Assembly (NCBI GenBank): GCA_965216695.1
Contig: OZ244212.1
Location: 4,128,035-4,192,034, forward strand
Source of the DNA: Candidatus Azotimanducaceae bacterium
GTDB taxonomy: Bacteria > Pseudomonadota > Gammaproteobacteria > Pseudomonadales > Azotimanducaceae
Direction of reading: 5' to 3'
DNA length: 64,000 nt
Shown here: piece after piece, positions 6,054 through 31,893 of the stretch
How the letters are laid out: every line of letters starts with the position of its first letter
How positions within the stretch are numbered: position 1 is the stretch's first letter
Made by a program: the position numbers and the translations under genes
The notes under the pieces: generated by a model
What the model was told of the DNA's origin: nothing
The model's database searches: none
Seen by the model: only the letters and a program-made list of their open reading frames with translations

Positions 6054-6113
6054 ATAATTGCGTTAGAGATGATTGCATTAGAGATAATTGCGTTAGAGAT
6101 AACTGCTCTAGTG
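6054..6113 (+). repeat. 4 x 15-bp AT-rich tandem direct repeat upstream of a secreted-protein gene
   Basis: The units are ATAATTGCGTTAGAG, ATGATTGCATTAGAG, ATAATTGCGTTAGAG and ATAACTGCTCTAGTG. Units 1 and 3 are identical. Confidence 0.85.
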
Positions 6114-6195
6114 AAAGTGGAACGCATCAGCAGTTGCGTTTCAGGGGGGGAATCGTATGGAGTGGATCAATGAGTGGAAAAACATGGAGGGTGTG

Positions 6196-10292: not shown

Positions 10293-10407
10293 TCTTCTTG
10301 TCTCCCGTATGTCTGATCTGGGCCAACGCGAACGCGCGCACGGCCGCGTTCGGCTTACAATGGTCGCGTACGCAGCGGCTTGCGCGCGCCAACACGGACC
10401 AGCGCTA

Positions 10408-11394: not shown

Positions 11395-11397
11395 ACG

Positions 11398-12870
11398 GTG
11401 TCTGACGAAGTGGAGGAACGAAAACGCGGGGTAAGCTATCGCGACGCGGACGCAGAATATTTCGCCAATCGCGGACTGAAGCGCTACGCGGGCGTCTTTT
11501 CCCTGTGGGCGCTCGGCGTTGGGGCGGTAATCTCGGGCGACTTTTCGGGCTGGAACCTGGGTGTAGGGCAAGCCGGTTTCGGCGGCTTTTTGATCGCCGT
11601 TGCGTTGATCACCGTGATGTACGTCGGCTTGTGCTTTTCGATAGCCGAGATGTCGCCGGCGCTTCCGCACACCGGCGGTGCGTATTCGTTCGCACGCACC
11701 GCTCTGGGTCCTTGGGGCGGGTTCGTTACCGGTCTTGCGGAAAACATGGAGTATGTGATTACCACGGCGGTCGTCTGCTACTTCGCTGCGGCTTACCTGC
11801 AGAGCATCTTTGCGACGCCGGATGCGGTACAGCCGCTCTGGTGGGCGGCGTTGTATGTGGTGTTTGTGGGCCTGAATGTGCTGGGTGTGGAGGCGTCGTT
11901 TCGATTCGTCGTGATCATCACGCTCATCGCACTCGCCATACTGGTCGTGTTCTTTGTTAGCGCCATTCCCCATTTTGCATGGGGCAATCTATGGAACATT
12001 CCGCCCGATCCCGGTCATTCGACGTTCCTGCCTAAGGGGATTGCCGCGGTAGGCGCTGCATTGCCCTTTGCAATCTGGCTGTACCTGGCGATCGAGCAAC
12101 TGCCGCTCGCGGCCGAAGAATCGGTAGACGTAACGCGGGACATGCCGCGCGGCCTGCTCTGGGGTCTGGCGACATTGGTGCTGACAGGGTTGCTGGTGAC
12201 ATTTCTGAATATGGGCATCGGCGGCGGCGCCGCATACTATGGTTCGCAAACTGAAGAACCTCTGCTGGATGGCTTGAGGACCACGCTTGGCGCTACCAGC
12301 GGTACCGTGCTGGGATTGGTGGCTGTCGCTGGTCTGGTCGCGAGCTTTCACGCGATTATCTTCGCTTACGGCCGCAACATCTTCTCACTCAGCCGCGCCG
12401 GATATTTTCCGTCGTGGTTGTCGGTTACGCACGCGACGCGTAAGACGCCGCACGTCGCACTCATCGCTGGCGCCGTCCTAGGCTACGGCGTGCTGTTGCT
12501 GCTGTTTGTACTCGGTGATAGCGGTGCGTTTGGCGGCGTGATTCTGAATATGGCCGTGTTTGGCGCAGTGATCGCCTACGCGATGCAGATGTGGTCGTAC
12601 CTTGTACTGCGCCGTGAGTTCCCGGAACTGCCGCGGCCGTATCGTAGCCCGCTGGGGCGAACCGGTGCGTGGATAGCCCTCGTTATCGCGCTCTTGGCGT
12701 TCGTTATGTTGTTCGTCAATCCCGATTTCCGGCCCGGCGTCGTTGGCGTTGCATTGTGGTTTGTTGCGGGCCTCGCGTACTTCGGGTTCCACGCCCGAAA
12801 GCGCATGATTCGCTCACCGGAAGAGGCGTTTGCGATTGAACAGTCGCGGCGGTCATTGCGGCAGCCCTGA
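11398..12870 (+). CDS. APC-superfamily amino acid/ethanolamine permease
   Basis: About 12 hydrophobic segments. The N-terminal LKRYAGVFSLWALGVGAVISGDFSGWNLG resembles ethanolamine permeases. The GTG start lies 4 nt after the upstream stop. Confidence 0.8.
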   Translation: MSDEVEERKRGVSYRDADAEYFANRGLKRYAGVFSLWALGVGAVISGDFSGWNLGVGQAGFGGFLIAVALITVMYVGLCFSIAEMSPALPHTGGAYSFARTALGPWGGFVTGLAENMEYVITTAVVCYFAAAYLQSIFATPDAVQPLWWAALYVVFVGLNVLGVEASFRFVVIITLIALAILVVFFVSAIPHFAWGNLWNIPPDPGHSTFLPKGIAAVGAALPFAIWLYLAIEQLPLAAEESVDVTRDMPRGLLWGLATLVLTGLLVTFLNMGIGGGAAYYGSQTEEPLLDGLRTTLGATSGTVLGLVAVAGLVASFHAIIFAYGRNIFSLSRAGYFPSWLSVTHATRKTPHVALIAGAVLGYGVLLLLFVLGDSGAFGGVILNMAVFGAVIAYAMQMWSYLVLRREFPELPRPYRSPLGRTGAWIALVIALLAFVMLFVNPDFRPGVVGVALWFVAGLAYFGFHARKRMIRSPEEAFAIEQSRRSLRQP

Positions 12871-15135
12871 CTCGATCAGGCCGCGAACATAGCGCTCGCG
12901 AATGTTGGTTTCCGTGAATGGCGGGAGCGGAGCGAAACGCGCCGAGAGATCGGGCCACGTTGAGAGCACGGCTTGGAGGTGCGCGTCGGCGGCGTCGGTA
13001 TCACCCAGCAACGCGAGACTCGCCGCCGCAAGCAGGTGCGCGTCTTCGCGGGCAAATTTCTCTGGTGATTGGTCGAGTGCGCGCTTGGCCCACTCGATCG
13101 CATTACGATACTTCCGGTCGGCGAAATGAGCGAGCCCCATCGACACGAGCCAACGCGTGCTTCTGGAGTCATTGGCCGCCATGTCGAGCGCGCGTGCGAT
13201 CTCGGCCTTCGCGTCGTCGATGCGGCCGCGCAAAGCCAGGGCGCGTCCCGTATCCGCGATCACTCCGGGTTCCGGATCCCACTCCGGATAGCCGACGCGT
13301 TCCAGTAGTTTCTGATACTTGAAGTCTCGGCGAATCGGGTCGAACCAGAAAGGTGATTTGATATCATCCATGCCCGTCTCGCGATTTTGCCAGCCCCTCT
13401 CGAGCCATGCGACTGCAAGCGCGTCTTCACCAAGCCACGCTGCCCAAGCGGCTACCGACCGTGCGGAGAATTCAGCCTCTATGAAGTAGTCGAGTAACGC
13501 GTGCGCTGCGCCGGCGAATCCGTCCGCTGCCCATCCCGCGTTCATTGCATCCGCTATTGCGCTGCAGCTCGGTCCGCACGTCTGCAGCAAGCCGTTCTGC
13601 GTTTGGTGCCAAAGCTGATGGCGGTCCAGCGCCCAGTACGCGCGCATTTCCAGGTCTGGATCGGGGAAAAGCTCGCGAATGGCTTCGAAGTCGGTCAGAC
13701 CATCCTGGTAGTGACGAGTCACAACCAGATGATCGGCACGGTGGCGCCGCCAGTGCAGCGTAAGCGGGTCGTAGTGAATCGCCTGATCCGCCATGGACAG
13801 TGCGCGGCCGAATTCTCCGAGCACATTGCGGGTTGCGTACGCGTACAGACTGAGCGTTACCGGGTCTCGGGGATTCAGCGCGAGCGCCCGATCCAGGTGC
13901 ACCTTGCCTGCGTCGAAATCGAACCGGTGTGCGTGGACCATCGCGCGGTGCGCGGCAGGAAGATCCGCGTCGATCGCCAGGGCTTTCAACGCGGCGTCAC
14001 GCGCGCGGGTCATGTTTCGATGGGCTTCGCCGTCGCTGCGCGGCGACCACCAACCGGAATTACTGAGCGCGTGACCCAGTTCGGCCCAGGCTTCCGCAAA
14101 TCGGGGATTGCGCGCTACAACGCTTTCCAGTAGCTGAACGGCCTCGCGGCCCGCTTGTGTTCTTGGGCGATGCGGATCGATCAGGATTTGTCGCGCGCGG
14201 AGATAGTCTTCGTAACCGTCGGGGTCGACCTCACGCGCGGTGTCAAGGCGGCTGATTTCTGCGGCCGACAAGTCCATCTCGAGGTGCGTGACCAGGTGTC
14301 GTGCGATCTCTCCGTGCATGTCGGCGATCTCGGATAACCGACGGTCGACGGCCTTCTGCCAAAGGCGATTGCCGGTGCCGCCGTCGACGAGATCGAGCTC
14401 TATCAGAATGCGGTCTCCAACTCGGTTCACCGATCCCGTTAACAGGGCGTCCACGCCTAAGGACTGCGCTAATACCTGAATAGTCGAGTCCGCGTGCCGT
14501 GTCGCTTGTGTCGAACGACTTGCAACAACGCTCAGAGCGCCGATTCTGCTCAACGTGTCGTGGAGTTCCAGCGTCAGCGCTTCTGCCAGGTAGGCCTGCG
14601 TTTCGTCGTCTGACACACTGTGTAGTGGCATAACAGCGAGGGAGCGTATGTGTCCCGCCTCACTCGTCGAAAGGGTGCGTACGCCCAAAGTGCTGATCAG
14701 GATCAGGGCCAGCGCGACGAATGCCAAGGCACCCCAGCGCAGCGCGTGCGTTCGTTGCCGTCGCGTTTGGAGTGGCAGCGGCTCAACCCGCGCCACGGTG
14801 CGGTAGCCTCGCCGGGTAACCGTTTCGATGTATCTGGCGTGCTTGGGGTCGTCGCCCAGCGCTTGTCGAATGAGGGTGATGCTGCGGGCGACGGCTACAG
14901 GTTCGACGACGCGATCGTGCCACACGGCTTCCATGATTTCGCCGTGCGACACCACGTCGCCGGACCGCTGGAGCAGCACCGACAGTACTCCGGCCACTTT
15001 AGGCTCCAGGCGCTGGCTTTGTCCGTTGCGTTCGATTTCGCCGGTGTCCGCGTGTACAACGAAGTCACCGAACCGATATGTCTCGCGCTCCCTCCGGCTT
15101 TCCACGGTGCGCTGCCACTTTGTTGCCCAGCCCAT
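12853..15135 (-). CDS. CadC-like membrane transcriptional regulator: OmpR/PhoB-type winged helix - TM - TolB-N-like - TPR
   Basis: The trans_reg_C-like N-terminus is YRFGDFVV...LEPKVAGVLSVLLQRSGDVVSHGEIMEAVW...RRGYR. One TM follows (WGALAFVALALILISTLGV), then RSLAVMPLHSVSDD and TPR-like repeats. ATG 15135 is preferred over TTG 15162. Confidence 0.8.
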   Translation of the reverse strand: MGWATKWQRTVESRRERETYRFGDFVVHADTGEIERNGQSQRLEPKVAGVLSVLLQRSGDVVSHGEIMEAVWHDRVVEPVAVARSITLIRQALGDDPKHARYIETVTRRGYRTVARVEPLPLQTRRQRTHALRWGALAFVALALILISTLGVRTLSTSEAGHIRSLAVMPLHSVSDDETQAYLAEALTLELHDTLSRIGALSVVASRSTQATRHADSTIQVLAQSLGVDALLTGSVNRVGDRILIELDLVDGGTGNRLWQKAVDRRLSEIADMHGEIARHLVTHLEMDLSAAEISRLDTAREVDPDGYEDYLRARQILIDPHRPRTQAGREAVQLLESVVARNPRFAEAWAELGHALSNSGWWSPRSDGEAHRNMTRARDAALKALAIDADLPAAHRAMVHAHRFDFDAGKVHLDRALALNPRDPVTLSLYAYATRNVLGEFGRALSMADQAIHYDPLTLHWRRHRADHLVVTRHYQDGLTDFEAIRELFPDPDLEMRAYWALDRHQLWHQTQNGLLQTCGPSCSAIADAMNAGWAADGFAGAAHALLDYFIEAEFSARSVAAWAAWLGEDALAVAWLERGWQNRETGMDDIKSPFWFDPIRRDFKYQKLLERVGYPEWDPEPGVIADTGRALALRGRIDDAKAEIARALDMAANDSRSTRWLVSMGLAHFADRKYRNAIEWAKRALDQSPEKFAREDAHLLAAASLALLGDTDAADAHLQAVLSTWPDLSARFAPLPPFTETNIRERYVRGLIESGLPQ

Positions 15136-15271
15136 CCGACACCGCGGTTGGGCGCGTGTCAAGGCGCGCGAACCGTCCGTTAGTAACCTGAAAGACTATT
15201 CAAAGATTTCCGAAAGTCCAATTCCGGGCTGCCGTCTAGTCTGCAGACGAATGGAATTGCAGGAGAGATCT

Positions 15272-19830: not shown

Positions 19831-19968
19831 CGGATGCTCGCAAGGATAGTTAGTGGACGGATGCTTAGTATAGTCGTCTTGCGCCAATCTGCCGCCAGGC
19901 GCACGGCGCCTTGGTATCTGTGTTCTGTGCGCTGATTGCATACGAGATTCTCGCTACACTGCCAAGCG

Positions 19969-22209
19969 ATGACCACCGCTGAGACATCCGGTACACCAAC
20001 TCCCGCCTATGAAGGAGAGGGCGGGTTCGTATTCGTGTGCTACTCGCACGAGGATTCGGATTCCGTTTATCAGGCGATAAGCATCCTCACCGATGCCGAC
20101 GTCAACGTGTGGTACGACGAGGGCATTCGTCCAGGTGCCGAATGGACCGACGAGCTAGCGAATGCCATTACTAATTGTGATCGGTTCCTTTTTTTTGCCA
20201 CTCCGCGCTCCGTCGATTCACGTCACTGCCGTAACGAGATTCAGTTTGCGATCAACTGCGACAAGGAAATTCTCGTTGTGTATCTTGAAGCGACGCAGCT
20301 GACGCCGGGTCTGGAACTGGCGTTGGGGTGGCGACAGGCGCTGATTCGATCGCAACTCGACGAGTCCACGTACGCGCGGCGCCTGGTGGCCGCCGTATCC
20401 GCGTCCAGTGATAGCGACGACATGGCCAAGTCCGGGCCGACCGGAACGCGCGGCGTGGTGACGCGCCGATGGGGTCGCCGCGCCGTCGCATGGATTGCGG
20501 TGCTCGGGGTGGTTCTCAGTGGCGTGCTGTATTGGATACTGGGTGCGCGTACGCCGTTACGAGCGTCCGGGCAGTCGACGTCGATCGCGATGCTGCCGTT
20601 GCAGAACCTCGGCGGCTTCGCAGACGATACGTACTTTCCAGACAGTTTCTCGGAGGATCTGCTCAATCGACTAGTGTCGGTGGAAGGTCTGTCCGTGGTG
20701 TCGCGGAGGGCATCTTTCGGGTTTCGCGAGACCCCGGGCAACCGTATAGATCTTGCGGAGGTTGCCGTCACGCTCGGCGTACGCAATATCTTGTCGGGTT
20801 ACGTTAGAAAAGTTCAAGACTCGTTGCACCTGAGTCTGGAGCTGGTGGAAGTGAAAGACGATTTGCCCACTATCCGTTGGAGCAAACGATACGAAGATCG
20901 ACCGATGTCGGAAGTACTCGCAATCCAGGCTGAGGTAACCAGGTTGGTGGCTTCAGAGTTTTTCCCTGGGGGCTTGAGCGATGAAACCCGGGTTCGCGTC
21001 GCTAATCACTCCACTGACAATGTGGAAGCGTACAACAGCTATCTCGAGGCGCGTGGCATTCTGCGAAAGCCCCTGAACGCCGCGCTCATAGATCGTGCGG
21101 CCGCGCTGTTCGATGCGGCAGTTGCGCTCGATCCGGAGTTTGCCTGGGCACGCGCCGGATTGTGCTCGACATACACGCTCGAGTACCGGCGTGAGGGAAC
21201 CTTCGCCAACGCGACGAACGCATGCGAAGCCCTGACGGGGTATGCGGTGGAACTTTTCGAAGTTCGACTCGCGTTGGGTGAATACCTGGTGGAAATTGGC
21301 GAAACGGAACGCGCCGTGACGGAACTTCAGGGCGCGGTGCAACTGAATCCGAACTCGGCGGATGCGCGAATCGGACTCGCGCGATCTCTCGCCGCGCGAT
21401 TTACAGCGAACAACACCGAGCTGGACCGGGTGCGTGCCGAAGAAGCGTATCTAGAAGGGATAGCGCTCGAGCCGACCTACTGGTTTGCACATCATGCGTA
21501 TGCGAGCTATCTGATCTCGCGTGGCGAGCTCGACGAGGCCCAGAGACAACTCGAACGATCGCTTGAACTGGAACCGGACAACCCATCCACGTCGAATAAT
21601 CTTGCGAATGTTTTGTTTCGCAAGGGAGAGAACGATGCGGCCGTCTTGATCTGGAACGCGGTGCTTGAGAAGGACGCCGGCAACCGATGGGCACACAGCG
21701 GCCTTGGCATACTGCACCACTATGATCGTGAGTTCTCGAAGGCAATAGATCATTTTCGTAGCGCCATCGATGCGGCGGGTGCCGATCACCAACTGTGGGG
21801 GCGTCTCGGTGAATCCGCTCGGCTGCTTCCTGATCGGCAGGTGGAATCACAGAAAGCGTTCGGCGAAGCGATAGCGTTAGCGCGCGAGTCGTTGCAGTTT
21901 GATCCCCGGGACTGGCAGACAAAGGGCTACATAGCCCTCTACTCGGCGTATTTGGGCGATTTTGAAACGGCAGAGGCGTCTCTCAAAGAGATGTTTGCGC
22001 TGAATTCGAGTCGAGAGCCGATGACGCACTACTGGGCCGCGTTGATTGCGTACGAGCAGGGCGAGCTGGAACGGACGTTCGCGGAGCTGGAGCAGGCTCT
22101 GCGATCGGGTTTCGACCAACAGAAGAAGTTTATCGCAGACGAGCCCGCGCTCGATGCACTTCGCGCAGAAGCGCCGGAAAGGTTTGATGCGCTAATTCGA
22201 CGCTTCTGA
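19969..22209 (+). CDS. TIR domain - TM - TolB-N-like - TPR receptor-like protein
   Basis: N-terminal TIR_2-type sequence FVFVCYSHEDSDSVYQAI...VNVWYDEGIRPGAEW...FLFFATPRSVDSRHCRNEIQFA. One TM follows (AVAWIAVLGVVLSGVLYWIL), then SIAMLPLQNLGG...YFPDSFSEDLL (as in the CadC-like paralogue) and about 400 aa of TPR repeats. Confidence 0.8.
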   Translation: MTTAETSGTPTPAYEGEGGFVFVCYSHEDSDSVYQAISILTDADVNVWYDEGIRPGAEWTDELANAITNCDRFLFFATPRSVDSRHCRNEIQFAINCDKEILVVYLEATQLTPGLELALGWRQALIRSQLDESTYARRLVAAVSASSDSDDMAKSGPTGTRGVVTRRWGRRAVAWIAVLGVVLSGVLYWILGARTPLRASGQSTSIAMLPLQNLGGFADDTYFPDSFSEDLLNRLVSVEGLSVVSRRASFGFRETPGNRIDLAEVAVTLGVRNILSGYVRKVQDSLHLSLELVEVKDDLPTIRWSKRYEDRPMSEVLAIQAEVTRLVASEFFPGGLSDETRVRVANHSTDNVEAYNSYLEARGILRKPLNAALIDRAAALFDAAVALDPEFAWARAGLCSTYTLEYRREGTFANATNACEALTGYAVELFEVRLALGEYLVEIGETERAVTELQGAVQLNPNSADARIGLARSLAARFTANNTELDRVRAEEAYLEGIALEPTYWFAHHAYASYLISRGELDEAQRQLERSLELEPDNPSTSNNLANVLFRKGENDAAVLIWNAVLEKDAGNRWAHSGLGILHHYDREFSKAIDHFRSAIDAAGADHQLWGRLGESARLLPDRQVESQKAFGEAIALARESLQFDPRDWQTKGYIALYSAYLGDFETAEASLKEMFALNSSREPMTHYWAALIAYEQGELERTFAELEQALRSGFDQQKKFIADEPALDALRAEAPERFDALIRRF

Positions 22210-22304
22210 TGCTGCGTGCATTGCGGCTGGAGCCGGCCGATCCAACGACTTGATTTCGTTGAACCTCGGGCGCAGACTGATCGCGAATGCCAGAGGGGAA
22301 TGAG

Positions 22305-22472
22305 ATGACAGAACTTCTTGAATCGAGCGACGGGACAAGTCGCTTCCGTCAATTTTTGCAAATGATCGGTGACGACGACAAGCCGAAACCGGGACCGCCC
22401 GATGACGTGCCGAAACCGGGGCCTCCGGACGACGTGCCGAAACCCGGCCCGCCGCCGACTGACCCGCACTGA
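22305..22472 (+). CDS. Pro-rich tandem-repeat microprotein (55 aa), hypothetical
   Basis: A GAGGGG SD lies ~7 nt before ATG 22305. The product is MTELLESSDGTSRFRQFLQMIGDDDKPKPGPPDDVPKPGPPDDVPKPGPPPTDPH. It starts 96 nt after the TIR gene stop on the same strand. Confidence 0.35.
   Translation: MTELLESSDGTSRFRQFLQMIGDDDKPKPGPPDDVPKPGPPDDVPKPGPPPTDPH
22383..22460 (+). repeat. 2.9 x 27-nt tandem repeat encoding (P)KPGPPDDV units
   Basis: CCGAAACCGGGACCGCCCGATGACGTG (22383-22409), CCGAAACCGGGGCCTCCGGACGACGTG (22410-22436), and the partial unit CCGAAACCCGGCCCGCCGCCGACT. Confidence 0.8.
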
Positions 22473-22503: not shown

Positions 22504-23292
22504 TCAAACGGTAAACGGGGCCTCGGCGTCGTATTCTTCTGAGTGGGCGCCGAGCCGTGCGAGCACAGGTTTTTGTTTGTCCGGCATCAACGCGTACATA
22601 CGCTCGAAGAGTCCCGGGTAACCTCCAGCAGATGTATCATCCAGGGCGTCAAGCAGCGCGGAGGTCAGGCGTCCGTGCTGCCGGGTGCTGTTCTCGTAAG
22701 AGAGCTGATCTTCGTGACACCCGGCAAAGTGCGTAATAAACGCGCCTACGGGTTCTCTGGGTGGGAGCTCCTTGCGAATCCTCGAATACATTTCGGGGTC
22801 GAGATAACGAATGATCTCGCTCGTATCGTCGTCCATGGCTTTTGCGACATCGTCGTCGCTGCCGCGGAGCATCGAGCCTGAGTGACAACAGTCTGTAATG
22901 AAAAGGACGCGTACACCGGGCTGAAACGTTTGCCACAACGCGTACAGTTCGTCGTCAATCAACTGTCCATCGTGAAGACACATCGTTTCGTCCTTCCCGT
23001 TTTCTTCGTCCCCGTCCTTGTCCCGCGTCCGGTTACCGTGCCCAGAATAATAGAGAACGAACAGATCGCCTGATGTAAGCGTTTTTGCGGCGGAGCGGAT
23101 TTCGGAAACGACTCGGTCCTTCGTACCGTCTTTGGAGAGCAGGATGGTATTTGTTAACCCGTGCGCTGCGGTGACGTCGGCGACTGCTAACGCGTCACGC
23201 TCGGCAAATCGGAGCTTGCCGTCCCATTCGCCGCCGTAACTGTTTTTGTCGCACAGGTTCATGCCGACAAGGCATGCAAGACCTTTTTTCAT
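22504..23292 (-). CDS. peptidase C14 caspase-family protein (orthocaspase), stand-alone catalytic domain
   Basis: Catalytic His context LFVLYYSGHGNR and catalytic Cys context VLFITDCCHSGS. GAGGAG SD upstream. No signal peptide and no accessory domain. Confidence 0.85.
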   Translation of the reverse strand: MKKGLACLVGMNLCDKNSYGGEWDGKLRFAERDALAVADVTAAHGLTNTILLSKDGTKDRVVSEIRSAAKTLTSGDLFVLYYSGHGNRTRDKDGDEENGKDETMCLHDGQLIDDELYALWQTFQPGVRVLFITDCCHSGSMLRGSDDDVAKAMDDDTSEIIRYLDPEMYSRIRKELPPREPVGAFITHFAGCHEDQLSYENSTRQHGRLTSALLDALDDTSAGGYPGLFERMYALMPDKQKPVLARLGAHSEEYDAEAPFTV

Positions 23293-23334: not shown

Positions 23335-24120
23335 TCACTGGCAGCGGCTTTTCTCCCAACGGATGTCTAACGCTACGCGTTCATTTGGCGCCTCCAGCGT
23401 CTCCGCCCGACGCAACCACAAACATACATTCTCAGCGGGCAGGTCGCAGACAAGTTGGGGAAGGCCGGCGTTGCGACGTTGGCATACGCCGGATTGAGCC
23501 AGGTTGGTGGTCAAAAAATTTCGGCCTGTCAGCACGATGGTCTGTTCGAGGTCGCTCGTAAGGAAGTGAGCGTGAAACGTCGCGAGACATCGGTCTGCCG
23601 TGCATGGCTCATCGGAACCGACGAGCGTCAATTTGAAATTTGCGTCAGGCACGGCCCAGAATTCGTCGTTCGTATTCACGAACGCCGAGCGGTGCCAGGT
23701 GGGCACGGCGCCCGCCGCATTCATTCGGACCGCAGACGGGAGAATATAAATGTCACCGTCTCGCGTTCCGGAATGTTCGTGGATGGGTGCATAGGGGTGT
23801 TCGTGAGCGGGTGCGTAAGGATGCTCGTGGGCTGGTGCGTAGGGGTGGTCGTGCACGAGCGCGTACTGGTCGTGGCGGTGTGTCTTGCTTACCGGGTCGG
23901 GGGCTGTCAGTAACGGCCACGCGACCGACAGTGGGATGTAGATCGCGGCGATCGTGCCCCCCCAGACCATGACGTTCCGGACAACCTGTTCCCAGCGTCG
24001 CGCGGACGCCTGCACCGATTCGGACCTTTGGCTCAGGATTGCTATTTCCGTGTCCGAGCGCTTTTGGTCCTGCGCAGGGGCAGGGTCATTCGGGTTGGGG
24101 TCTTTGTTGTGTTCGTTCAT
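23335..24120 (-). CDS. single-pass membrane protein with His-rich octapeptide repeats and Cys-rich C-terminal domain, hypothetical
   Basis: The start ATG 24120 overlaps the upstream stop (ATGA). A charged N-terminus is followed by one TM (VMVWGGTIAAIYIPLSVAWPLL), then HDHPYAPAHEHPYAPAHEHPYAPIHEH, then a ~150-aa domain with six Cys. Confidence 0.6.
   Translation of the reverse strand: MNEHNKDPNPNDPAPAQDQKRSDTEIAILSQRSESVQASARRWEQVVRNVMVWGGTIAAIYIPLSVAWPLLTAPDPVSKTHRHDQYALVHDHPYAPAHEHPYAPAHEHPYAPIHEHSGTRDGDIYILPSAVRMNAAGAVPTWHRSAFVNTNDEFWAVPDANFKLTLVGSDEPCTADRCLATFHAHFLTSDLEQTIVLTGRNFLTTNLAQSGVCQRRNAGLPQLVCDLPAENVCLWLRRAETLEAPNERVALDIRWEKSRCQ
23773..23844 (-). repeat. 3 x 24-nt tandem repeat encoding HEHPYAPA units
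   Basis: Plus-strand units at 23773-23796, 23797-23820 and 23821-23844 (e.g. GTGTTCGTGAGCGGGTGCGTAAGG), with a degenerate fourth unit following. Confidence 0.8.
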
Positions 24121-25226
24121 TTCGGGGTATCGCCGGTGTGCTCGAGCCATGCGATCAGCTCGGCCACGCGGCCCCTGTCCAGTTCTCGTTCGGCGCGCGC
24201 AGGCGGAAGGAGGCTCACCAGTTTTAGCAGGCGGACAATCACCGGCGCGCCTGCAAATAGACGCAGGTAACCGGCCAGGCGGCCTAAGGTAACCCCGGAG
24301 AGCATGGCCATGATCGCGAACGGTTCGTACTTGCCGATGCCACAGGCGAATGCGGCTAAGAAGCTCCTGTCTTTGGCGTCACAATCACCGTCGTTCAACA
24401 TCCAGCCGAGCAGGTACCAGCCGAGTAACGCCACCGCGAGCCCGAAAAGGACTTTCAGACCGTCGGCCTGCAGGATGCGCTGCCGGTTAGTAACAAGGTC
24501 ACGGATCCGAGTCTGTAGATACAAAGCTTTTCTCGGCGGTGACATGTCGCGTTCCTCGACAGGAATAGGCGCGATGACCTGGTCGAGTATGGATTCGTCA
24601 ACAACTTCGAAGTGGTAAGTCGTTTCCGTAATGCCGTCAAGATCGGCGAGTTGCTGCCGAATTTCTCGAAGCGTCATACCGCGTTGCAGTGCGTCGTAGA
24701 AGAAGGCGGAAAACTCGGCCGCTGCGCTGCTCTGCACAGGTAGCGTTGTGCCTACGATGCAGTCGGCCACGCCTCTCATGTTCCGAGCAAGACCCGCCGA
24801 CCAGCAGCAGTTCAGGACGACTATGCGAATGCCTTTTCCGCGTAGTGCTTCTACCAACCACTCGTTGGGTACGTACTCTCCGAAGATCTTTTCGTCTTTG
24901 AGAATGAGAGCAGCGCCCCACTCGGCCTCCTCAGCCTCAGTCGCAGCGCGTTCGCCGTGACCGCTGAAATGCAGAACAGTCACGGGCCGTTCTGCGAGGT
25001 GGCGGTGAACGTCCTCGCGGCGTACTTCCGGAACCACCTCAAGTTCGACCCGGCCTTCGCTACGTGCGTCGAATAGCGCTTCGGTGACACCGCTGAGTTC
25101 GGGCCACAGATCCAACTTCTCGTATTTCGCAAGCGCTTTTTGACGATCCGGTTCGCCCTGAGCGACAAAGGTATCTGGGTCCGGTTTAACGAACTGGGGG
25201 TTTGCGGTGAGGTAGAGAATTCTCAT
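24117..25226 (-). CDS. CHAT-like caspase-fold protease domain fused to C-terminal transmembrane segments
   Basis: MRILYLTANPQ... followed by VTVLHFSGHG (His) and IRIVVLNCCWSAG (Cys), the spacing and context typical of CHAT domains. The C-terminus has hydrophobic helices (LKVLFGLAVALLGWYLLGWML, FAIMAMLSGVTLGRLAGYL, FAGAPVIVRLLKLVSLL). The start is uncertain; ATG 25313 is the alternative. Confidence 0.7.
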   Translation of the reverse strand: MRILYLTANPQFVKPDPDTFVAQGEPDRQKALAKYEKLDLWPELSGVTEALFDARSEGRVELEVVPEVRREDVHRHLAERPVTVLHFSGHGERAATEAEEAEWGAALILKDEKIFGEYVPNEWLVEALRGKGIRIVVLNCCWSAGLARNMRGVADCIVGTTLPVQSSAAAEFSAFFYDALQRGMTLREIRQQLADLDGITETTYHFEVVDESILDQVIAPIPVEERDMSPPRKALYLQTRIRDLVTNRQRILQADGLKVLFGLAVALLGWYLLGWMLNDGDCDAKDRSFLAAFACGIGKYEPFAIMAMLSGVTLGRLAGYLRLFAGAPVIVRLLKLVSLLPPARAERELDRGRVAELIAWLEHTGDTPK

Positions 25227-25278: not shown

Positions 25279-28200
25279 TCAGAATGCTGCCATTGCGTCG
25301 ATGAAAAACCCATCCGACCGGTACGTGCCGCGTCTCAAGTCATCGTCGAAGCCCGAGAAGTTGTAGCCCACGCCGAACCTCAAGCTGCCGATGAATCGAG
25401 AATTCAGCAAGCGCGGATCAATGTGCTTGTACAGACCCACGAGTACGCCGGTTGACGATGCGTCGGCCTTTCGATCGATCAGGGTGCGATACTCGGTGAG
25501 CAGTTCGACCGGGTTGTGTGCAAAGTCGTCTGAACCGGTGTCGCCGAAGCGGTAGCCGAATCCCGCCACGATCATTCCCAGACTCACGTCCTGCCAGCCG
25601 CCGACACCGCGCCGCAGTCGCTGTCGACCTTCTCGATAAGCGAGTTTGCCTTTTAACTGAAAACGCGGGGAGAGCTCGAATATTCCCTCGGTCGACAGCA
25701 GGTGACTGCGTTCATCACCGGGGGTGCCAATCTGCCCCGGCGTCCCTACGTCGTGCAGAAGTCCGTACCGAACGAGCGCATTGAATCTATCCGAACGAAC
25801 CGGGCGATAAGCGAAGCCCGCATTGAGTTCTATGAATCGGCCCGACGTGCGATCTGTCATTCGATCCCGAACGAGTGCGGCATTCAGTCGCGCGACGAGC
25901 CTGCGGTTGTCGTCGATCAGATACGAGAACTCACTTGCGGTGACGAACTGATGATTGTCGACCGATTGGCCTTCGTCACGACGCAGCTCTAATCGGCTGT
26001 GCAGTCGCCAGTTCTCCGCTGTGTAGGTTCCACCGATGCTGGTTGCCATGCGTTCGAACTCCCCGCGATCGCTCACCACACGGCTGCCCTGAAAGGTGGT
26101 CGCAAGCGTGAGGTTGTTCGACAGATCGTAGTCCAGACCGAATACGTGGCCGGTACTGGCTTCCCGGTTCATGCGACCGACTCTCGACTCGCCGTACAGT
26201 GCTAGCCTATTGCCGAGCGCCTGCCGCTGGCCAAACGTGAGCAGGCTGCTCTCTGTGTCGGTGCGGTCCGGGTTGACGGAGTAACTTCCGTACAGCTCTC
26301 GTCCTTCCGCCAGCTGATAGCGGCTTGCGAACTGCGTGGTTGCGCCAGAGCCGACACCACCGGATACGTTGAAGACGGTCGCGGAGCCTAGCGCGTAGTC
26401 AATCCCACCCAGCAATGCGCTGCCTCGGTCGCCTTTGCTGATTTCGACGCTCAACGCAACGCTGTCGTTCATCTGGCGGTTAACGCCCGTGCTCAGTAAT
26501 CGATTGTCGCCGTAGTCACGGTCCGAATGGACGTCGTGTTGCGCCGTTCCATACACGGTCGTCGACTCGTCGACGCGTCGCGCAACGCGCATACCGGCAA
26601 CACCTCCCTGTCCGTTTCGAGTTCCGGAGAAAAGTATCGGCGTGTCGATCGCATCCGCGGTTACGTCGTCCCATCGGATCTCTGAGTCCAGCTGCCAGCA
26701 GCGCTCGTCGACATCACAACGCCAGTGTTTAGACAACTGGAATCGCGCGTTGCGCTGTGTAAGTCCATCGGACCGTTCAAGCGACGCCATGCCGGCGAGC
26801 ACTCTCAATCCTCCACCGATGTCGCTGTCGAGGTTGAAGCCGGTATCGGTCTCGTTAGCGGGGCCGTTAAAACGGCTGGACGCGAAACCCGCGTCGCGCT
26901 TTTGCCACCATGCCTGTACGTATCCGGGGCGATCTTTGAAGTCGGCTAGGTCGATTCGGGTGTCGAGTGCGAATGCGTGCGCGTGTCCTGCATGCGTCGG
27001 CGACGCTCGGTTGTTCGGAAGGTTAAAGGAGAGTCCACCGTCGAACGAGGCGTTGCCTCGAACCGTGTTGCCGTTGCTGGCCGCGACTTCCGCCGCAACG
27101 TAGGTGCCCGACGAGTGGCGCCAGGTAACGTCCAATGCATCGAGCCGATGGTCGTCTGATCCTTGCTCGTCGGTAACGTGCGTTAGACCAACCGACACGC
27201 GGTCAGCCAGCCATGTTTTGCCACGCACGCCGTACACCAGATCCTGGGCGCTGAACTCCGCAGGAACGTGTTCGTAGTCAATATGCAAGAAGACGCGTTC
27301 GCCCTGTAACGCCTCATTCCGCACCACCGGATTGTGTCTTTCCCGAACGACCTGAGACAGCGGCCGCTTCAGTAAGAGACGGCCGTGGGCCGGATCGAAT
27401 TCGTAGTCTGCGCCCGGGGTCAGCAACTGACGTTCTTCGAGTTGAGTCGTTCCGTTCCGGCGCACTTCAACCCAGACTTTCTCGGAGCCCATCACTACGT
27501 CGGTATCCGGAAGATAGTAGAGGGATCCGCCCGTTGCCAGGAACGAAGCATTTGCGGAAACTGACTGCGCCTCGGATGCAAAGAGCTCAATCTCGTAGCG
27601 CCGGTCCCCGAAAACGGTCGCCAATGCGCTGGTCTTTGTTAGACGCAAACCGTAGAGCGATCGGTCGAAGTATCCGAGTTGAGTGTCGGTAAACGCGGTC
27701 TCGAAATTGCCCCACAGCGCTCTGTTGCGTCTGTACGCAATCTCAGCGTACATCGAACCCTGGGATTCGGCTGCCATGATTGTTGTTGAATCATCACCAT
27801 AGGTTGGATAGTAGTTGTCGGTGTCGAGACGGCGAAACAGACGTTGCCGGTCGCGCGCCGCGACGTTGTCGTTCAGATCGCGAAGCGGCGCGTGGGAGGA
27901 GTCAAACTGCACAGTCCACTCCAACGGAGCTCCATCGGTGTCGCCGCCAACGTGGCGAACGCCTTGCCAGAATCCGGCCACTCGGCCGTCTCCGAACAGC
28001 CCGCGGTCCAGATCCGCTGGACCGCCGAAGGTGTCCAACGCGCCGTTCGCCGTACTGGACCCCACGGTAAGGTCGACGATGGCAGCGAATCGTTGCCGGT
28101 TGTCGGCTGATCCTACGACAGGAACGCTTATGTCTGGAAGTATCGGACCGCTTGCGTTCAATCGCTGGGCCGCCAGAAGTTCGCCACCTACAATATCGAG

Positions 28201-31200
28201 CCTTGAAGAAACGGGTCCACAGATACCTACCGTGCGCGGCCGTTTCCAGCGCCCGTCGGGGGTCGTGCGCCATCTCGATACGCGGTAGCCGATCCGCGAG
28301 TCTGTCACAAGCGGGTGCGTCGTTAGCGTGGGATCACGTACGAATAGAAACAACGCCTCCCAGTCTGTTGAGTGGGCAGGTCCGGAGGGTAAGAACGAGC
28401 CGCGATAGAACTCGATCGTCTGTTCTGCTTCAACGGTGACGATGCGATTCGTTTCCTCCGCATCACGCCAGCAGGCTGTTGCCTCACGATCGTATGCGTC
28501 ACTCGAGGTCGCCGCTGACGGACGCATGCACATCTCGATCGCGCTGTGATGGTGATTGGTGAATCTGAAGGCGTATAGCTGATTTGCGTCGTCTGCCTGG
28601 GCGTCGAGCGCCGTACGGATATCGCAACACTCGAGCACGGCGGTTCGGTTCTCGGCCGAAAAGATTGCATCGTCCTGATAGAAACGCTGATCGCGTCGTA
28701 CTTCAACCACACCTCGTCGACCGCCGTGCTGGGGGGGTTGTTCGAACCCGGCAGCTTCGACATGCCGGGCAGCTAAAGCGGACTGCGCGAGTGACGTCTT
28801 CTCGGTAGCGTTCCAGATGCCGGCGATGTTTGCAGCTAAACGACTTTGATCGACGATCAATCGCTCGCGCACGTCGTTGTTTCCGTTGCGACGCCGACTG
28901 ACGAGGTAGGGCACGTGTGCGGGAAGTTTCAGATTGCTGGTTGCTAGAAGATTGATCGTCTGGTCGGAAGTTGGGTAGTAACGATTGTTCGCGGGCACTT
29001 CCAGTGCGCGCTCCTTGGTCCAATCGACATCTGCGAGTGTTGGCTGTGTACCGGAGAAAGGGTCCCGACAGAGTCCGCCGAAACTGGGGTACGCATAGAG
29101 GCGATAGCGCAACCGGTCCCGCGCGCGAACGTCTGCGACATTCACCTTGATAGTGGTGCCGGATGATTCCGCGCGCCGAATACCGCGCCAGGTCGAATCC
29201 GGCGCTTCCGGTTGTGACACCGCAACCAGGTGGCATTGGGCGGCGTCGGTGTAATTCGATTCCGACTTGAACTGAAATGTCCAGCCTTCGGCTCCGCGTT
29301 CTGCAGACTCCAGGGCTATGTGGAGCTTCTTCTCGCGATCAAACGACCCTACGTAATCCAGTTGTTCGAAGTCGCCACAACAATCGCTGGATACGCGTTC
29401 ACTCTGCCAATGGACTGCGAAGTTGGCTTTTGCGAGCCCGCCCGGTACCAGACGCACGAACTGTTTCGGATCCGAATGGATGACCGTCAATCGGTCGCCC
29501 GGAATGGATCCGGGGTCCAGTTTCACCAGATAGTTCCTGCCGGTACTCGGAACGTCGATGTCGGCGATGTGGTACCTGCCGTGCTGATCCGTGCGAATGA
29601 TCAATCCCTCGGGCGTCAACAGCACTGCCCCAGGAATCCCGTTTTCGTCGTCTCCAGACTGTACCCCGTCGCGATTTCGATCGTTGAACACCTTGCCGAT
29701 TACGGTGGCTTTCTGAAACAACGGATCGGCCACCACGTTCACCGTGGCTTCGTCGCTCGTGGGCTGGCTAACGGGGCTGCGGGCAACGGAGTGGTTTGTA
29801 TGGGGTCCGATCGATGCCGCAGGCGTGACTCGGCTCCGAAACTGAATCAGCACGGTTTCGCTCTGAGCGAGGTCAAAGGGGGCAAACGTCAGCTGCGGAC
29901 CGACTTCGACCGCTATCGGGATGCGTTCGTCATCGGTGGTACCCAGCCGGCCATCCGCGCCGGCGCGAACTAGTTCGGCCGCGTCGGACGCCGGACGGAA
30001 TGCCGGCGGGCCTGAATCTGTGACAGTCACCGCCCTCTGATCGCCGGGGAGCGTGTTGCGGATCGAAATTGAATAGGTGACGTGCCGCCCGACCATCGTG
30101 GTGACCGGGTTGGCTTCCACGGTCAATTGCAGGCCGGATACGGGCGCGTTCCGATAGGGGATTGGCGTTGGCACGTCCTCGTCGGGTATCCCATCCCCGT
30201 TCGGGTCGGCGTCTGCACCGTTCGTCGACACGTCCGTCTCTATGCCACCAACGGTGGCGACGGCACTGTTGAAGATCTCCCCCGTATCTGCCCGCGGCGT
30301 GAATCGCACGTTGAACTGCACGTGTGCGCGTGCTCCGGCGGGCATTGCATCGGTGCCCTGTAACAGACGCAGGTCGCTCCTCCCGTCGAAACTCGGATTG
30401 ATCGCCAGGGTTTCCGACTGAAGTGTTCCGGGTACAACCTCGAACGAATCGGCAGCCGCAAACGTGGTGACGAGGTCGTCGATCACGGATACCTGTTCTA
30501 CAGTGGATTCACCGAGGTTTTCCAGGGCGATCGTGATAGTCGTCTCGCGTTGCGAACCGGATACGACCCGTCCGAAGGACGCGGCCTTTGCCAGTCCGAG
30601 ATGCGAAGCGATTGGTTGCACGTTGAATGGAATGGGCGTTGGGTCGAACTCTTCCGGCGATCCATCGCCGTCGGGATCGGGGTTCGCTCCGTTCGTCGAA
30701 TCGTCGCTCACACCCCGCCGCGCGGATGCGAACGCCTGGTTGAGAAATGGCGAAGCGGTTGTGCCGGGTTGGAATCGTACGGTCAACGACACGGACGCGG
30801 TATCGCCAGCGGCCAGACGGTCGCTGCCGTGTAGCAGCAGTGTTTGTTGATCTCCGTCGAACGACGGGTTGATCGTTAGCTTGGAAGACGCCAGGCTCAA
30901 TACTTGAAACGATTCCGCATCGGCAAACGTCTGAGCCAGCGAGTCGACGATCTGTAGGTCGTGTGCGATAGCGTTCCCGAAGTTTTGCACGCGGAAAATC
31001 AACGGTACCGTGAATCCGCCACCTTCTGCCGATTCGACCTCACCGGCCCGCTTTGCCAACCCCAGAATGGCAAAGGGCAGATCAATCATGGTGGGAGCGC
31101 ATCCCGCTTGGGCAGTGGTCAGTTCGTCAGGACGCGAGCAATCGGAAAACGTACTACGGAAGCGTGCATTTTCCGCCGTAACCTCCGCCGAATTCCGAAA

Positions 31201-31629
31201 CGGTCCGATGTGTGAGGCTGGGTCGATGTCTGCGGTGAATGTAACGGTTCCCGTCTGGTCCCGTCGCAGCGTTTCGCCTGGTGCTAACAACCGGTGGTCG
31301 ACGCGGCCGTCAAATTCGGGGTTCGCCGTCGCGAAGCGGCCACCGACCGCCACGGAGTGAATGCGAACCAGCGTTGCTGGTGCGATTGAGTCCGCGACCG
31401 CGTCGGACACCTGGACTTCCGACGCAACCAGATCGCCAGTATTGCGTACCGAAATCTGCATCCGCACCGCGAAACTACCGTCCGCGTTCTCTGAGGTGGA
31501 TAGTACCGTTTTGCGCAGTGACAGCGCGAGATCCGGATAGGCGGGCGCCGAGGCGATCGCTAATAAGCAGATGACCGTCGCGCAGGTGACGCGTCGCACG
31601 AACGCACGGTCACAGCCGGTTTCCCCCAT
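25279..31629 (-). CDS. giant (2116 aa) surface/outer-membrane protein: signal peptide, DUF11-type Ig-like repeats, SdrD-B-like domain, C-terminal beta-barrel-like region
   Basis: AGGAG SD before ATG 31629, signal VTCATVICLLAIASAPA. There are four ~150-aa repeats, two ending in STNGANPDPDGDGSPEEFDPTPIPF / STNGADADPNGDGIPDEDVPTPIPY, then VIGKVFNDRNRDGVQSGDDENGIPG. The last ~700 aa have an alternating beta-strand pattern ending ...FFIDAMAAF (terminal Phe). Confidence 0.8.
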   Translation of the reverse strand: MGETGCDRAFVRRVTCATVICLLAIASAPAYPDLALSLRKTVLSTSENADGSFAVRMQISVRNTGDLVASEVQVSDAVADSIAPATLVRIHSVAVGGRFATANPEFDGRVDHRLLAPGETLRRDQTGTVTFTADIDPASHIGPFRNSAEVTAENARFRSTFSDCSRPDELTTAQAGCAPTMIDLPFAILGLAKRAGEVESAEGGGFTVPLIFRVQNFGNAIAHDLQIVDSLAQTFADAESFQVLSLASSKLTINPSFDGDQQTLLLHGSDRLAAGDTASVSLTVRFQPGTTASPFLNQAFASARRGVSDDSTNGANPDPDGDGSPEEFDPTPIPFNVQPIASHLGLAKAASFGRVVSGSQRETTITIALENLGESTVEQVSVIDDLVTTFAAADSFEVVPGTLQSETLAINPSFDGRSDLRLLQGTDAMPAGARAHVQFNVRFTPRADTGEIFNSAVATVGGIETDVSTNGADADPNGDGIPDEDVPTPIPYRNAPVSGLQLTVEANPVTTMVGRHVTYSISIRNTLPGDQRAVTVTDSGPPAFRPASDAAELVRAGADGRLGTTDDERIPIAVEVGPQLTFAPFDLAQSETVLIQFRSRVTPAASIGPHTNHSVARSPVSQPTSDEATVNVVADPLFQKATVIGKVFNDRNRDGVQSGDDENGIPGAVLLTPEGLIIRTDQHGRYHIADIDVPSTGRNYLVKLDPGSIPGDRLTVIHSDPKQFVRLVPGGLAKANFAVHWQSERVSSDCCGDFEQLDYVGSFDREKKLHIALESAERGAEGWTFQFKSESNYTDAAQCHLVAVSQPEAPDSTWRGIRRAESSGTTIKVNVADVRARDRLRYRLYAYPSFGGLCRDPFSGTQPTLADVDWTKERALEVPANNRYYPTSDQTINLLATSNLKLPAHVPYLVSRRRNGNNDVRERLIVDQSRLAANIAGIWNATEKTSLAQSALAARHVEAAGFEQPPQHGGRRGVVEVRRDQRFYQDDAIFSAENRTAVLECCDIRTALDAQADDANQLYAFRFTNHHHSAIEMCMRPSAATSSDAYDREATACWRDAEETNRIVTVEAEQTIEFYRGSFLPSGPAHSTDWEALFLFVRDPTLTTHPLVTDSRIGYRVSRWRTTPDGRWKRPRTVGICGPVSSRLDIVGGELLAAQRLNASGPILPDISVPVVGSADNRQRFAAIVDLTVGSSTANGALDTFGGPADLDRGLFGDGRVAGFWQGVRHVGGDTDGAPLEWTVQFDSSHAPLRDLNDNVAARDRQRLFRRLDTDNYYPTYGDDSTTIMAAESQGSMYAEIAYRRNRALWGNFETAFTDTQLGYFDRSLYGLRLTKTSALATVFGDRRYEIELFASEAQSVSANASFLATGGSLYYLPDTDVVMGSEKVWVEVRRNGTTQLEERQLLTPGADYEFDPAHGRLLLKRPLSQVVRERHNPVVRNEALQGERVFLHIDYEHVPAEFSAQDLVYGVRGKTWLADRVSVGLTHVTDEQGSDDHRLDALDVTWRHSSGTYVAAEVAASNGNTVRGNASFDGGLSFNLPNNRASPTHAGHAHAFALDTRIDLADFKDRPGYVQAWWQKRDAGFASSRFNGPANETDTGFNLDSDIGGGLRVLAGMASLERSDGLTQRNARFQLSKHWRCDVDERCWQLDSEIRWDDVTADAIDTPILFSGTRNGQGGVAGMRVARRVDESTTVYGTAQHDVHSDRDYGDNRLLSTGVNRQMNDSVALSVEISKGDRGSALLGGIDYALGSATVFNVSGGVGSGATTQFASRYQLAEGRELYGSYSVNPDRTDTESSLLTFGQRQALGNRLALYGESRVGRMNREASTGHVFGLDYDLSNNLTLATTFQGSRVVSDRGEFERMATSIGGTYTAENWRLHSRLELRRDEGQSVDNHQFVTASEFSYLIDDNRRLVARLNAALVRDRMTDRTSGRFIELNAGFAYRPVRSDRFNALVRYGLLHDVGTPGQIGTPGDERSHLLSTEGIFELSPRFQLKGKLAYREGRQRLRRGVGGWQDVSLGMIVAGFGYRFGDTGSDDFAHNPVELLTEYRTLIDRKADASSTGVLVGLYKHIDPRLLNSRFIGSLRFGVGYNFSGFDDDLRRGTYRSDGFFIDAMAAF

Positions 31630-31893
31630 CCTGTGCTCCTGATCAGGACCTATGCTGCCTTTATCCTTTGTTCTTCTATGGCTTCCTGTTTGATCCGGAT
31701 TTCGGTGATCCGAACGCAAATGGGCAGTTGCCTGACAATCTGCCTCCAAGCTTATTGCTATTGTTAGCGTATTGCCAACCGGGTCTCGGACGGCGCGTCG
31801 ACCCTGTCGTTATGAGTTTCGGAGCGGCCGCGCGGTTCAACGGACGCGAACCCCATCTCGGTACTGGGCGTCGGGATTGGCTAGCGTCGCCGG

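Follow-up and report, generated by a model that had tools for sequence, protein, structure and literature searches.

The locus examined here raises the question of what a bacterial TIR domain does when it is joined, through one membrane helix, to a large module that appears to face the periplasm, and of which other proteins it works with. It lies in a 64,000-nucleotide stretch of a Candidatus Azotimanducaceae bacterium genome (assembly GCA_965216695.1, contig OZ244212.1, positions 4,128,035 to 4,192,034 of the forward strand), hereafter the window. A previous inspection of the letters alone, hereafter the sequence-only reading, treated the gene as standing by itself. In its ortholog group, however, the gene belongs to a conserved six-gene cassette that also encodes a CHAT protease and a caspase-family protease. 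Taken together, the results favour a combined reading, to which a probability of about 0.5 is assigned, in which an envelope-sensing TIR receptor acts on CHAT and, through it, on a caspase arm.

The receptor gene is contained in an open reading frame (ORF) of 757 codons at 19936-22209 on the plus strand. Translation from the ATG at 19969 yields 746 aa, and this start is backed by the N-termini of orthologs, which lie at its position or a few residues after it. Full-length orthologs with 43-48% identity occur in several genomes, so the gene is not a chance ORF. Its parts, including the predicted transmembrane (TM) helix and the tetratricopeptide repeats (TPRs), are located as follows.

19969..22209, plus strand: TIR receptor gene (TIR, TM, TolB-N-like domain, TPR), defined by the ORF, Pfam, orthologs and AlphaFold2 (AF2).
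20020..20403, plus strand: TIR domain, aa 18-145, predicted cytoplasmic, defined by TIR_2, alignment and Foldseek.
20236-20238, plus strand: codon of the putative catalytic Glu, E90, from alignment to the TIRs of Toll-like receptors (TLRs) and ThsB.
20404..20481, plus strand: linker, aa 146-171, of low model confidence, Ser/Asp-rich and then Arg-rich, ending in TRRWGRR, defined by the predicted local distance difference test (pLDDT) and the Arg count.
20482..20547, plus strand: single TM helix, aa 172-193, AVAWIAVLGVVLSGVLYWILGA, predicted from Kyte-Doolittle hydropathy, the AF2 model and the positive-inside bias of the family.
20566..21003, plus strand: TolB-N/LpoB-like α/β domain, aa 200-345, predicted periplasmic, defined by Foldseek and the JGI names of homologs.
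21016..22206, plus strand: TPR solenoid, aa 350-746, predicted periplasmic, with a TPR end-of-group C-terminal cap, defined by Pfam, NCBIfam and Foldseek/PDB.

The TIR domain is matched by Pfam TIR_2 (PF13676) over aa 21-117 with E=8.8e-20 and 71.9 bits against a cutoff of 28. It carries FVCYSH at aa 22-27, the loop W48-Y-D50-E and the segment S84-RHCRN-E90-IQF, all of which had been described correctly from the letters. Towards the C-terminus, a dozen Pfam TPR families match between about aa 410 and 650, and the TPR end cap NF047558 (TPR_END_plus; aa 687-743, 38.4 against a cutoff of 32) is the one NCBIfam model that scores above its cutoff. No signal peptide was seen at the N-terminus, where the highest 19-residue Kyte-Doolittle mean in the first 30 positions of the sliding frame is 0.3. 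Exactly one segment is strongly hydrophobic (aa 172-193, peak 2.32; the next peak is 1.37), and it is followed by 553 residues (194-746), close to the 550 or so that had been proposed.

The AF2 models agree with this division. The full protein (26-sequence alignment) was modelled with a pLDDT of 88.4. Since whole-protein PDB sequence and Foldseek searches were swamped by TPR proteins and returned nothing else, aa 1-350 were also modelled separately (98-sequence alignment), with a pLDDT of 88.0 that rises above 90 over the TIR domain. A TIR fold spans aa 21-144 and an α/β domain aa 205-331, after which helical repeats continue to the C-terminus; the linker (aa 148-172) is disordered, with pLDDT below 50. 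Both models contain one long helix, which starts at residue 169 or 173 and ends at 192. The single TM claimed by the sequence-only reading thus has both a hydropathy peak and a modelled helix behind it, and aa 172-193 are predicted to form a signal anchor with the N-terminus inside.

Foldseek searches of the aa 1-350 model against the PDB matched the TIR part to MyD88, SARM1, TLR1/10/15, AbTir, BtpA, RPP1 and SPARTA, with target-normalised TM-scores of about 0.6-0.8 to the isolated TIRs of MyD88, SARM1, AbTir, TLRs and Hydra TRR-2. The α/β domain matched TolB of three species (4r40, 2w8b, 7mx5; E about 2e-5 to 1e-4) over 135-142 alignment columns at an rmsd of 3.7-3.8, and further matched LpoB (4q6l) and lipoprotein GNA1162 (4hrv). 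These matches to TolB, LpoB and GNA1162 confirm, for the modelled domain, that the label TolB-N-like is structurally justified. Homologs of the region are named 'TolB-like protein' by JGI, and the fold relatives (TolB, LpoB, GNA1162) are all periplasmic proteins.

The TIR domain very probably lies in the cytoplasm and the TolB-like and TPR parts in the periplasm (N-in/C-out). This orientation is strongly inferred from the absence of a signal peptide, the positive-inside bias, the periplasmic type of the fold and the sister heads, which are necessarily cytoplasmic. Five Arg residues fall in the 12 residues before the TM and two after it. The same bias runs through the family: in 118 TM-bearing members, the 15-residue flanks contain a mean of 3.5 Lys plus Arg on the N-terminal side and 1.1 on the C-terminal side, with the N-flank richer in 102 members and poorer in 2 (Wilcoxon p about 2e-18). 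The module formed by the TM, TolB-like and TPR parts aligns at the sequence level with proteins headed by winged-helix, class III cyclase, BTAD and Ser/Thr kinase domains, and DNA-binding and ATP-using heads must be cytoplasmic. None of the results places the TPRs in the cytoplasm, and the predicted topology is therefore the one that the sequence-only reading had drawn.

The TIR head is probably an NAD+-cleaving enzyme, a view held with moderate confidence from its conserved residues. In phmmer alignments, SRHCRNEIQFA is aligned with NSCWCQYELYFA of the TLR15/TLR2 chain 7ylf, with QSEWCHYELYFA of TLR6 and with NSKALREEIDYG of a ThsB, which places E90 at the conserved Glu position of these TIRs. 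E90 is invariant both in the 26 sequences of the alignment and in the TIR domains of all 170 family representatives, so the catalytic Glu assigned from the letters is retained. Among the same 170 representatives, D50 is present in all, H27 in 165, C87 in 164 and W48 in 163. This pattern indicates strong purifying selection on a site that is catalytic in NADase TIRs.

The neighbouring genes provide the second part of the answer. Downstream of the receptor gene lie five further genes, of which the first shares its strand and the other four are transcribed towards it.

22287..22472, plus strand: small ORF, 61 aa, acidic PKPGPP-repeat peptide, found at the same place in 7 cassettes.
22504..23292, minus strand: caspase-family (Peptidase_C14) protease, 262 aa, predicted cytoplasmic, His85/Cys136 dyad (Pfam E=2.4e-16).
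23335..24150, minus strand: one-TM protein, 271 aa, TM around aa 60-80, from the ortholog alignment and TM prediction.
24117..25226, minus strand: CHAT protease with one or two C-terminal hydrophobic segments (Pfam CHAT E=3.8e-10).
25279..31749, minus strand: giant secreted protein, 2156-aa ORF, with signal peptide, DUF11/CLIPPER repeats and C-terminal barrel (Pfam DUF11).

The cassette thus runs from the TIR gene and the small ORF into the converging genes for the caspase, the one-TM protein, the CHAT protease and the DUF11 giant. In the neighbourhoods of the orthologs, the one-TM protein measures 256-304 aa and the DUF11/CLIPPER giant 2200-3100 aa. Searches with the window proteins (tblastn) recovered an identical order and orientation in the window and at L001/L058, L002/L005, L003/L004, L008, L086 and L088, and L007 agrees with the cassette order up to its contig end. 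On the far side of the TIR gene, different genes are found in every genome. A search seeded with CHAT added three more metagenome cassettes (L089, L090 and L091). Of these, L091 has every gene of the cassette, the TIR gene among them, and L089 does not extend far enough for a decision. Of the 10 cassettes whose TIR position is readable, 9 contain the TIR gene, and of the 10 ortholog loci, 9 have the cassette. The exceptions are L090, where a divergent giant-CHAT-oneTM-caspase cassette has a 230-aa membrane ORF (5502-6194, minus strand) in the TIR position, and L087, where a TIR ortholog of 47% identity (4734-7010) stands without the cassette. No conserved neighbour was found at any of 59 paralog loci. 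The TIR gene and the cassette are strongly linked, though not in every case; as a unit of six genes, the cassette appears to be undescribed.

PADLOC gave weak matches to the TIR core, the caspase and CHAT in the cassette and called no system. A scan for promoters and terminators was uninformative, as it returned fewer matches than shuffled sequence. In L088, two overlapping ORFs make up the TIR receptor gene (9353-11580), whose contig has a coverage of 2.4×; the split probably reflects a sequencing error rather than a pseudogene.

Both proteases retain their catalytic residues. A profile of five caspase orthologs can be aligned from end to end and covers PDB 3BIJ (GSU0716; E=9e-77) almost completely, and H85 and C136 are invariant in the five orthologs. 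The caspase has no hydrophobic segment and no extra domain. The CHAT ORF reaches 25313, and its orthologs begin at Met30 (nt 25226); H119 and C169/C170 are invariant among them. The best PDB match of the CHAT profile is the CHAT domain of SAVED-CHAT 8tl0 (residues 297-453, E=9e-17). One or two hydrophobic segments follow the protease domain; they probably anchor CHAT in the inner membrane and leave its protease in the cytoplasm.

Two studied systems offer precedents for this combination. In type IV Thoeris, a caspase-like protease is switched on by N7-cADPR, which the TIR produces, and then breaks down cellular proteins; the C-terminal domain of this caspase has been proposed to bind the signal (Rousset et al., bioRxiv 10.1101/2024.10.24.620036). 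As in that system, a TIR_2-type domain with the catalytic Glu has as its neighbour here a caspase-family protease whose His/Cys dyad is intact. The Thoeris TIR, however, is short, soluble and encoded in the same operon, whereas the present TIR belongs to a 746-aa membrane receptor encoded by a gene convergent to that of the protease; the caspase consists of no more than a protease domain of 262 aa, four extra genes are conserved, and there is no defence island. No Thoeris effector with a signal-binding domain was found in the same operon, and the caspase and CHAT, both free of sensor domains, lie on the opposite strand. Thoeris profiles remained below their cutoffs (Pfam ThsB_TIR 18.0 against 21.2; NCBIfam Thoeris_type3_ThcB4 23.8 against 220), and the ThsB profiles of PADLOC match the TIR core only (E=4e-9 to 1.5e-5).

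The second precedent is found in type III-B CRISPR, in which SAVED-CHAT cleaves and thereby activates PCaspase (Steens et al., bioRxiv 10.1101/2023.06.23.546230). The cassette likewise encodes a CHAT protein with a His/Cys dyad and a separate caspase with its own dyad, and the closest PDB relative of its CHAT is 8tl0. It differs in that no SAVED domain and no nearby CRISPR or CBASS genes are present and in that CHAT is membrane-tethered; the PADLOC SAVED-CHAT match covers the CHAT part only (positions 396-445 of 498). Where Cas10 generates the upstream signal in the SAVED-CHAT system, the TIR receptor would do so here.

Two other caspase systems were compared. The cassette caspase matches end to end the single-domain metacaspase-like protein GSU0716 of Geobacter sulfurreducens (3BIJ), which was deposited as 'Uncharacterized protein GSU0716' and adds no function. 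In the two-gene EACC1-caspase system (Kaur et al. 2020, PMC7159879), the caspase_w_EACC1 model scores 36.9 against a cutoff of 140; compared with the small EACC1 TM protein, the neighbour here has 271 aa, consists mostly of a six-Cys periplasmic domain and matches no family. Judged by domain and profile matches, the TIR protein is a member of the TIR_2 family on a COG5616-type TolB-like/TPR chassis, and is not a member of Thoeris (types I-XI), the TLR family, TIGR04510, EACC1-caspase or SAVED-CHAT. By analogy, it may act like a combination of type IV Thoeris and the CHAT-to-PCaspase relay with a TLR-like input layout.

On the combined reading, the receptor would be a bitopic inner-membrane protein in which the flexible linker and the single helix join the TIR to the periplasmic module. 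The TolB-N-like and TPR parts would bind a protein or peptide ligand or report a perturbation of the envelope, and the stimulus at the envelope might be presented by the giant surface protein or by the Cys-rich one-TM protein. TIR enzymes are activated for NAD+ cleavage by oligomerisation, which gathers the TIR heads. A change in the ectodomain could accordingly alter the oligomeric state of the receptor, gather its TIR heads and start NAD+ cleavage, with either a nucleotide signal or NAD+ depletion as the output. The membrane-tethered CHAT and then the caspase would become active, and growth arrest or cell death might follow. A step from TIR to a protease arm is plausible because of the Thoeris IV and SAVED-CHAT/PCaspase precedents. 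We infer the coupling of the TIR to the proteases with moderate confidence, and a defence or cell-death outcome with little.

Several observations weigh against this reading in addition to the exceptions L087 and L090. The TIR gene converges on the protease operon and shares no operon with it, and neither protease has a recognisable nucleotide-sensor domain, which makes the step from TIR to protease the weak point. No defence islands or mobile genes were seen in the window and five other genomes, where the flanks are metabolic. The equivalent Glu is kept in the TIRs of TLRs, which are not NADases, so its conservation alone is no proof of NADase activity. About 15% of the family (about 21 of 143 members) has a short linker and no hydrophobic segment, and one Ser/Thr kinase on the same chassis (P0033) likewise lacks a TM, so the module can also work in the cytoplasm. 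A wholly cytoplasmic protein, whose hydrophobic segment would be no membrane span and whose topology would not resemble that of a TLR, could appeal to these TM-less members and to P0033. Such a protein is nonetheless very improbable in view of the peak of 2.32 over 19 residues, the 20-24-residue helix in both AF2 models, the Arg cluster on the N-terminal side with its family-wide counterpart, and the TolB/LpoB type of the fold.

The remaining alternatives concern what the TIR does. Because the proteases carry no nucleotide-binding domain, a self-sufficient NADase and activation by proximity at the membrane both have to be considered. A stand-alone sensor-effector, whose NADase depletes NAD+ or signals to an unlinked effector and whose adjacency to the cassette reflects shared regulation or history, would account for the hundreds of family members, the 59 paralog loci without a conserved neighbour, the ortholog and the cassette that occur apart, the convergent transcription and the missing ligand-sensor domains. 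We regard it as unlikely but to be reckoned with: order and orientation are kept in 9 of 10 readable cassettes at 43-48% identity while the other flank always changes, and experimental precedents exist for TIR-caspase as well as CHAT-caspase coupling. The proximity model takes the TIR as a non-enzymatic scaffold, with clustered receptors recruiting and activating the membrane-anchored, sensor-free CHAT. It agrees with the Glu of the TLR TIRs and with the presence of MyD88 and TLR TIRs among the best Foldseek matches, but no second TIR or death-like adaptor domain was found in the cassette, and the invariance of E90 and D50 and near-invariance of C87 and W48 in a mostly cassette-free family point to a constraint that the domain itself imposes, for which catalysis is the simplest explanation; a scaffold is improbable. 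A non-immune signalling role stays live because of the metabolic setting and of a chassis shared with ordinary signalling heads (cyclases, kinases, ToxR-like regulators), one of which, a winged helix-turn-helix (wHTH) paralog, is encoded 5 kb away. The TIR would then give a second-messenger output for an environmental or peptide cue, for example in surface-protein display, aggregation or biofilm formation, which would suit the many paralogs per genome, the absence of defence and mobile genes, the adhesin-like giant and the small peptide gene. This role is rather unlikely, as no non-immune second-messenger pathway of a bacterial TIR was found in the literature searched, and the two cytoplasmic caspase-family proteases with intact dyads, a pair typical of death or defence modules, cannot reach the surface protein.

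Within the receptor-to-protease reading, a more specific and quite speculative version can be drawn. In it, the cassette would encode an envelope-spanning innate-immune pathway, in which the giant and the Cys-rich protein form a tripwire for phage adsorption, predation or contact. It is just as tentative that the TPR ectodomain would read the attack and that the TIR would fire a membrane-proximal cascade from CHAT to caspase, ending in cell suicide. If true, it would be a bacterial counterpart of TLR-to-caspase signalling in which danger is sensed before entry into the cytoplasm, and the expanded paralog family would be a germline repertoire of extracytoplasmic TIR receptors. In the bacterial TIR systems of the literature searched, infection is detected inside the cell by soluble proteins. 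With a TIR coupled to a periplasmic sensor, TIR signalling would reach cues from outside the cytoplasm, and the receptor logic of animal TLRs would have a prokaryotic example. The six-gene unit joins the TIR-to-caspase and CHAT-to-caspase themes in a new configuration, in which a receptor facing the periplasm takes the place of the cytoplasmic sensors and two extracytoplasmic proteins are added.

The analogy to animal TLRs drawn by the sequence-only reading holds for the layout, with a solenoid, one helix and a TIR, and fails in the details. As in TLRs, the protein is single-pass, with an extracytoplasmic solenoid and a cytoplasmic TIR, which aligns with 7ylf and TLR6 in sequence and with TLR1, TLR10 and TLR15 in structure; as with TLRs, too, family members have multiplied and diversified within single genomes. 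In contrast to TLRs, which are type I proteins with leucine-rich repeats (LRRs) and a C-terminal TIR, the TIR here is N-terminal (type II), and the ectodomain consists of TPRs, not LRRs, with an extra TolB-N-like domain. No adaptor TIR accompanies the receptor, whose own TIR is probably enzymatic. The resemblance is a case of convergent domain shuffling and not of orthology.

The architecture, which had been considered unusual, is that of a large expanded family. An HMMER scan with aa 1-350 over 1.84 billion representatives (50% identity clusters) returned no fewer than 615 clusters at E<=1e-30. The best 150 are colinear with few exceptions, the TIR, linker and TolB-like parts lying at residues about 4-320 of proteins of 600-800 aa. 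When each GTDB species is represented by a single genome, relatives are encoded at 525 loci. The hosts are mostly marine Gammaproteobacteria/Pseudomonadales (Halieaceae-type metagenome-assembled genomes, Luminiphilus, Ca. Azotimanducaceae and Ca. Seongchinamella), and several paralogs can occur in one genome, with one tally giving up to about 9 per metagenome-assembled genome; among the 79 loci kept of the 525, 11 belong to ETNP8_MAG_37 and 5 to SZUA-307. No characterised family member was found in the literature searched, and a 2020 survey (PMC7075850) merely noted TIR plus TPR architectures in actinobacterial proteins. The TIR-TM-TolB-like-TPR architecture is thus widespread yet uncharacterised, so that, of the earlier caveat that it might prove both widespread and already characterised, only the first half applies. 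The gene itself is a member of this large unnamed family, and a function for the family would annotate many genes, in hundreds of clusters from abundant marine Gammaproteobacteria.

According to the sequence alignments, the TIR is one of several output heads used with the same chassis, the others being cyclase, kinase and ToxR-like DNA-binding heads. The protein has the features of the COG5616/TolB-N-like plus TPR chassis, namely a TM followed by the TolB-N-like domain and a C-terminal TPR array with its end-of-group cap. One-component receptors on this chassis (rhizobial cyclases, ToxR-like wHTH-TPR proteins, Ser/Thr kinases) share the same TM, TolB-N-like and TPR module and differ in the head: a TIR occupies the place that in the others belongs to a cyclase, kinase or DNA-binding domain. 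In rhizobial megaplasmids, tblastn located the module in hundreds of annotated adenylate cyclases. The TIR protein scores 52.8 bits against a cutoff of 400 for TIGR04510 ('putative peptide modification system cyclase') and lacks Guanylate_cyc. No ligand reported for the COG5616 plus TPR chassis was found in the literature searched. Sinorhizobium meliloti CyaK/NsrA was not used as a chassis precedent, as its domain architecture is not stated in the papers.

Several relatives vary the same theme. The ToxR-like paralog near the TIR gene (window 12853-15162, minus strand; 769 aa) consists of a wHTH domain (Trans_reg_C), a TM, a TolB-like domain and TPRs, and its TolB-like domain is 26% identical to that of the TIR protein. 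In P0028-P0031, a head of the same TIR subfamily (42-49% identity) and a TM are followed by an ectodomain of FGE-sulfatase and dienelactone hydrolase/peptidase S9 type, which shows the membrane TIR head to be a module that can be reused. In the long proteins P0113, P0117, P0134, P0139, P0168 and P0220 (1800-2800 aa), between four and seven TIR or TolB-like stretches follow one another in tandem; either gene calls were concatenated there, or the proteins are truly built of many modules.

Among the other cassette products, the one-TM protein has a short cytoplasmic N-tail, the TM (seen in two orthologs as well as in the window protein), a linker that varies and a conserved WHR-motif domain with six invariant Cys, which is expected from the sequence to be a disulfide-bonded periplasmic domain. 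A profile search returned 3 proteins, and neither the metagenome scan nor Pfam gave a relative. The window protein carries three copies of a His-rich HEHPYAP repeat in the periplasmic linker (aa ~100-125), which its orthologs lack and which may bind metal.

The giant probably starts at Met41 (nt 31629). Its C-terminal outer-membrane β-barrel module comprises about 940 aa, ends in Phe and has 452 homologs, some of which match OMP_b-brl, Porin_4 or OmpA and some of which NCBI calls outer membrane protein or TonB-dependent receptor. The motif GYNFSGFDDD…GWFxDxxAxF, typical of the signal at the end of β-barrels, closes each of the five giants examined. Outside the cassette, the barrel module occurs as a separate gene of ~1200 aa in Novilysobacter and Cocleimonas (L083, L084) and as the C-terminal part of a 1743-aa DUF11 protein (L085). 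In L083-L085, a giant repeat-adhesin gene immediately precedes the barrel gene, and neither TIR nor CHAT genes are nearby. The cassette giant thus fuses the repeat and barrel parts, which elsewhere are mostly encoded by separate genes; the adhesin-plus-barrel pair of L083-L085 is apparently unstudied. A LapD/LapG/LapA-type model, in which a periplasmic protease under the control of an inner-membrane receptor frees a giant adhesin, was set aside because both proteases start with the catalytic domain and have no N-terminal signal-peptide-like segment. In the L008 giant (N-terminus ~21800-22170, minus strand), the signal peptide is followed by an extended (EP)n/(KP)n stretch of low complexity that is missing from the window protein.

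The small ORF probably starts at 22305, behind a GAGGGG Shine-Dalgarno-like site. The PKPGPP peptide has two to five repeats and occupies the same position and strand in each of the seven cassettes examined; family searches gave no match for it, and it shows neither a TM nor a signal peptide. Its N-terminus ends in G or GG before the acidic run, resembling a double-glycine leader. A role as a double-glycine/RiPP precursor was considered and remains a lead only, as no family matched. The TPR region of the TIR protein has a weak NCBIfam match to the PA2778 C39 peptidase family. A protein with Peptidase_C39-like and TPR parts is encoded at window 35128-36637 (minus strand), next to a DUF6627 protein and ~13 kb from the peptide gene.

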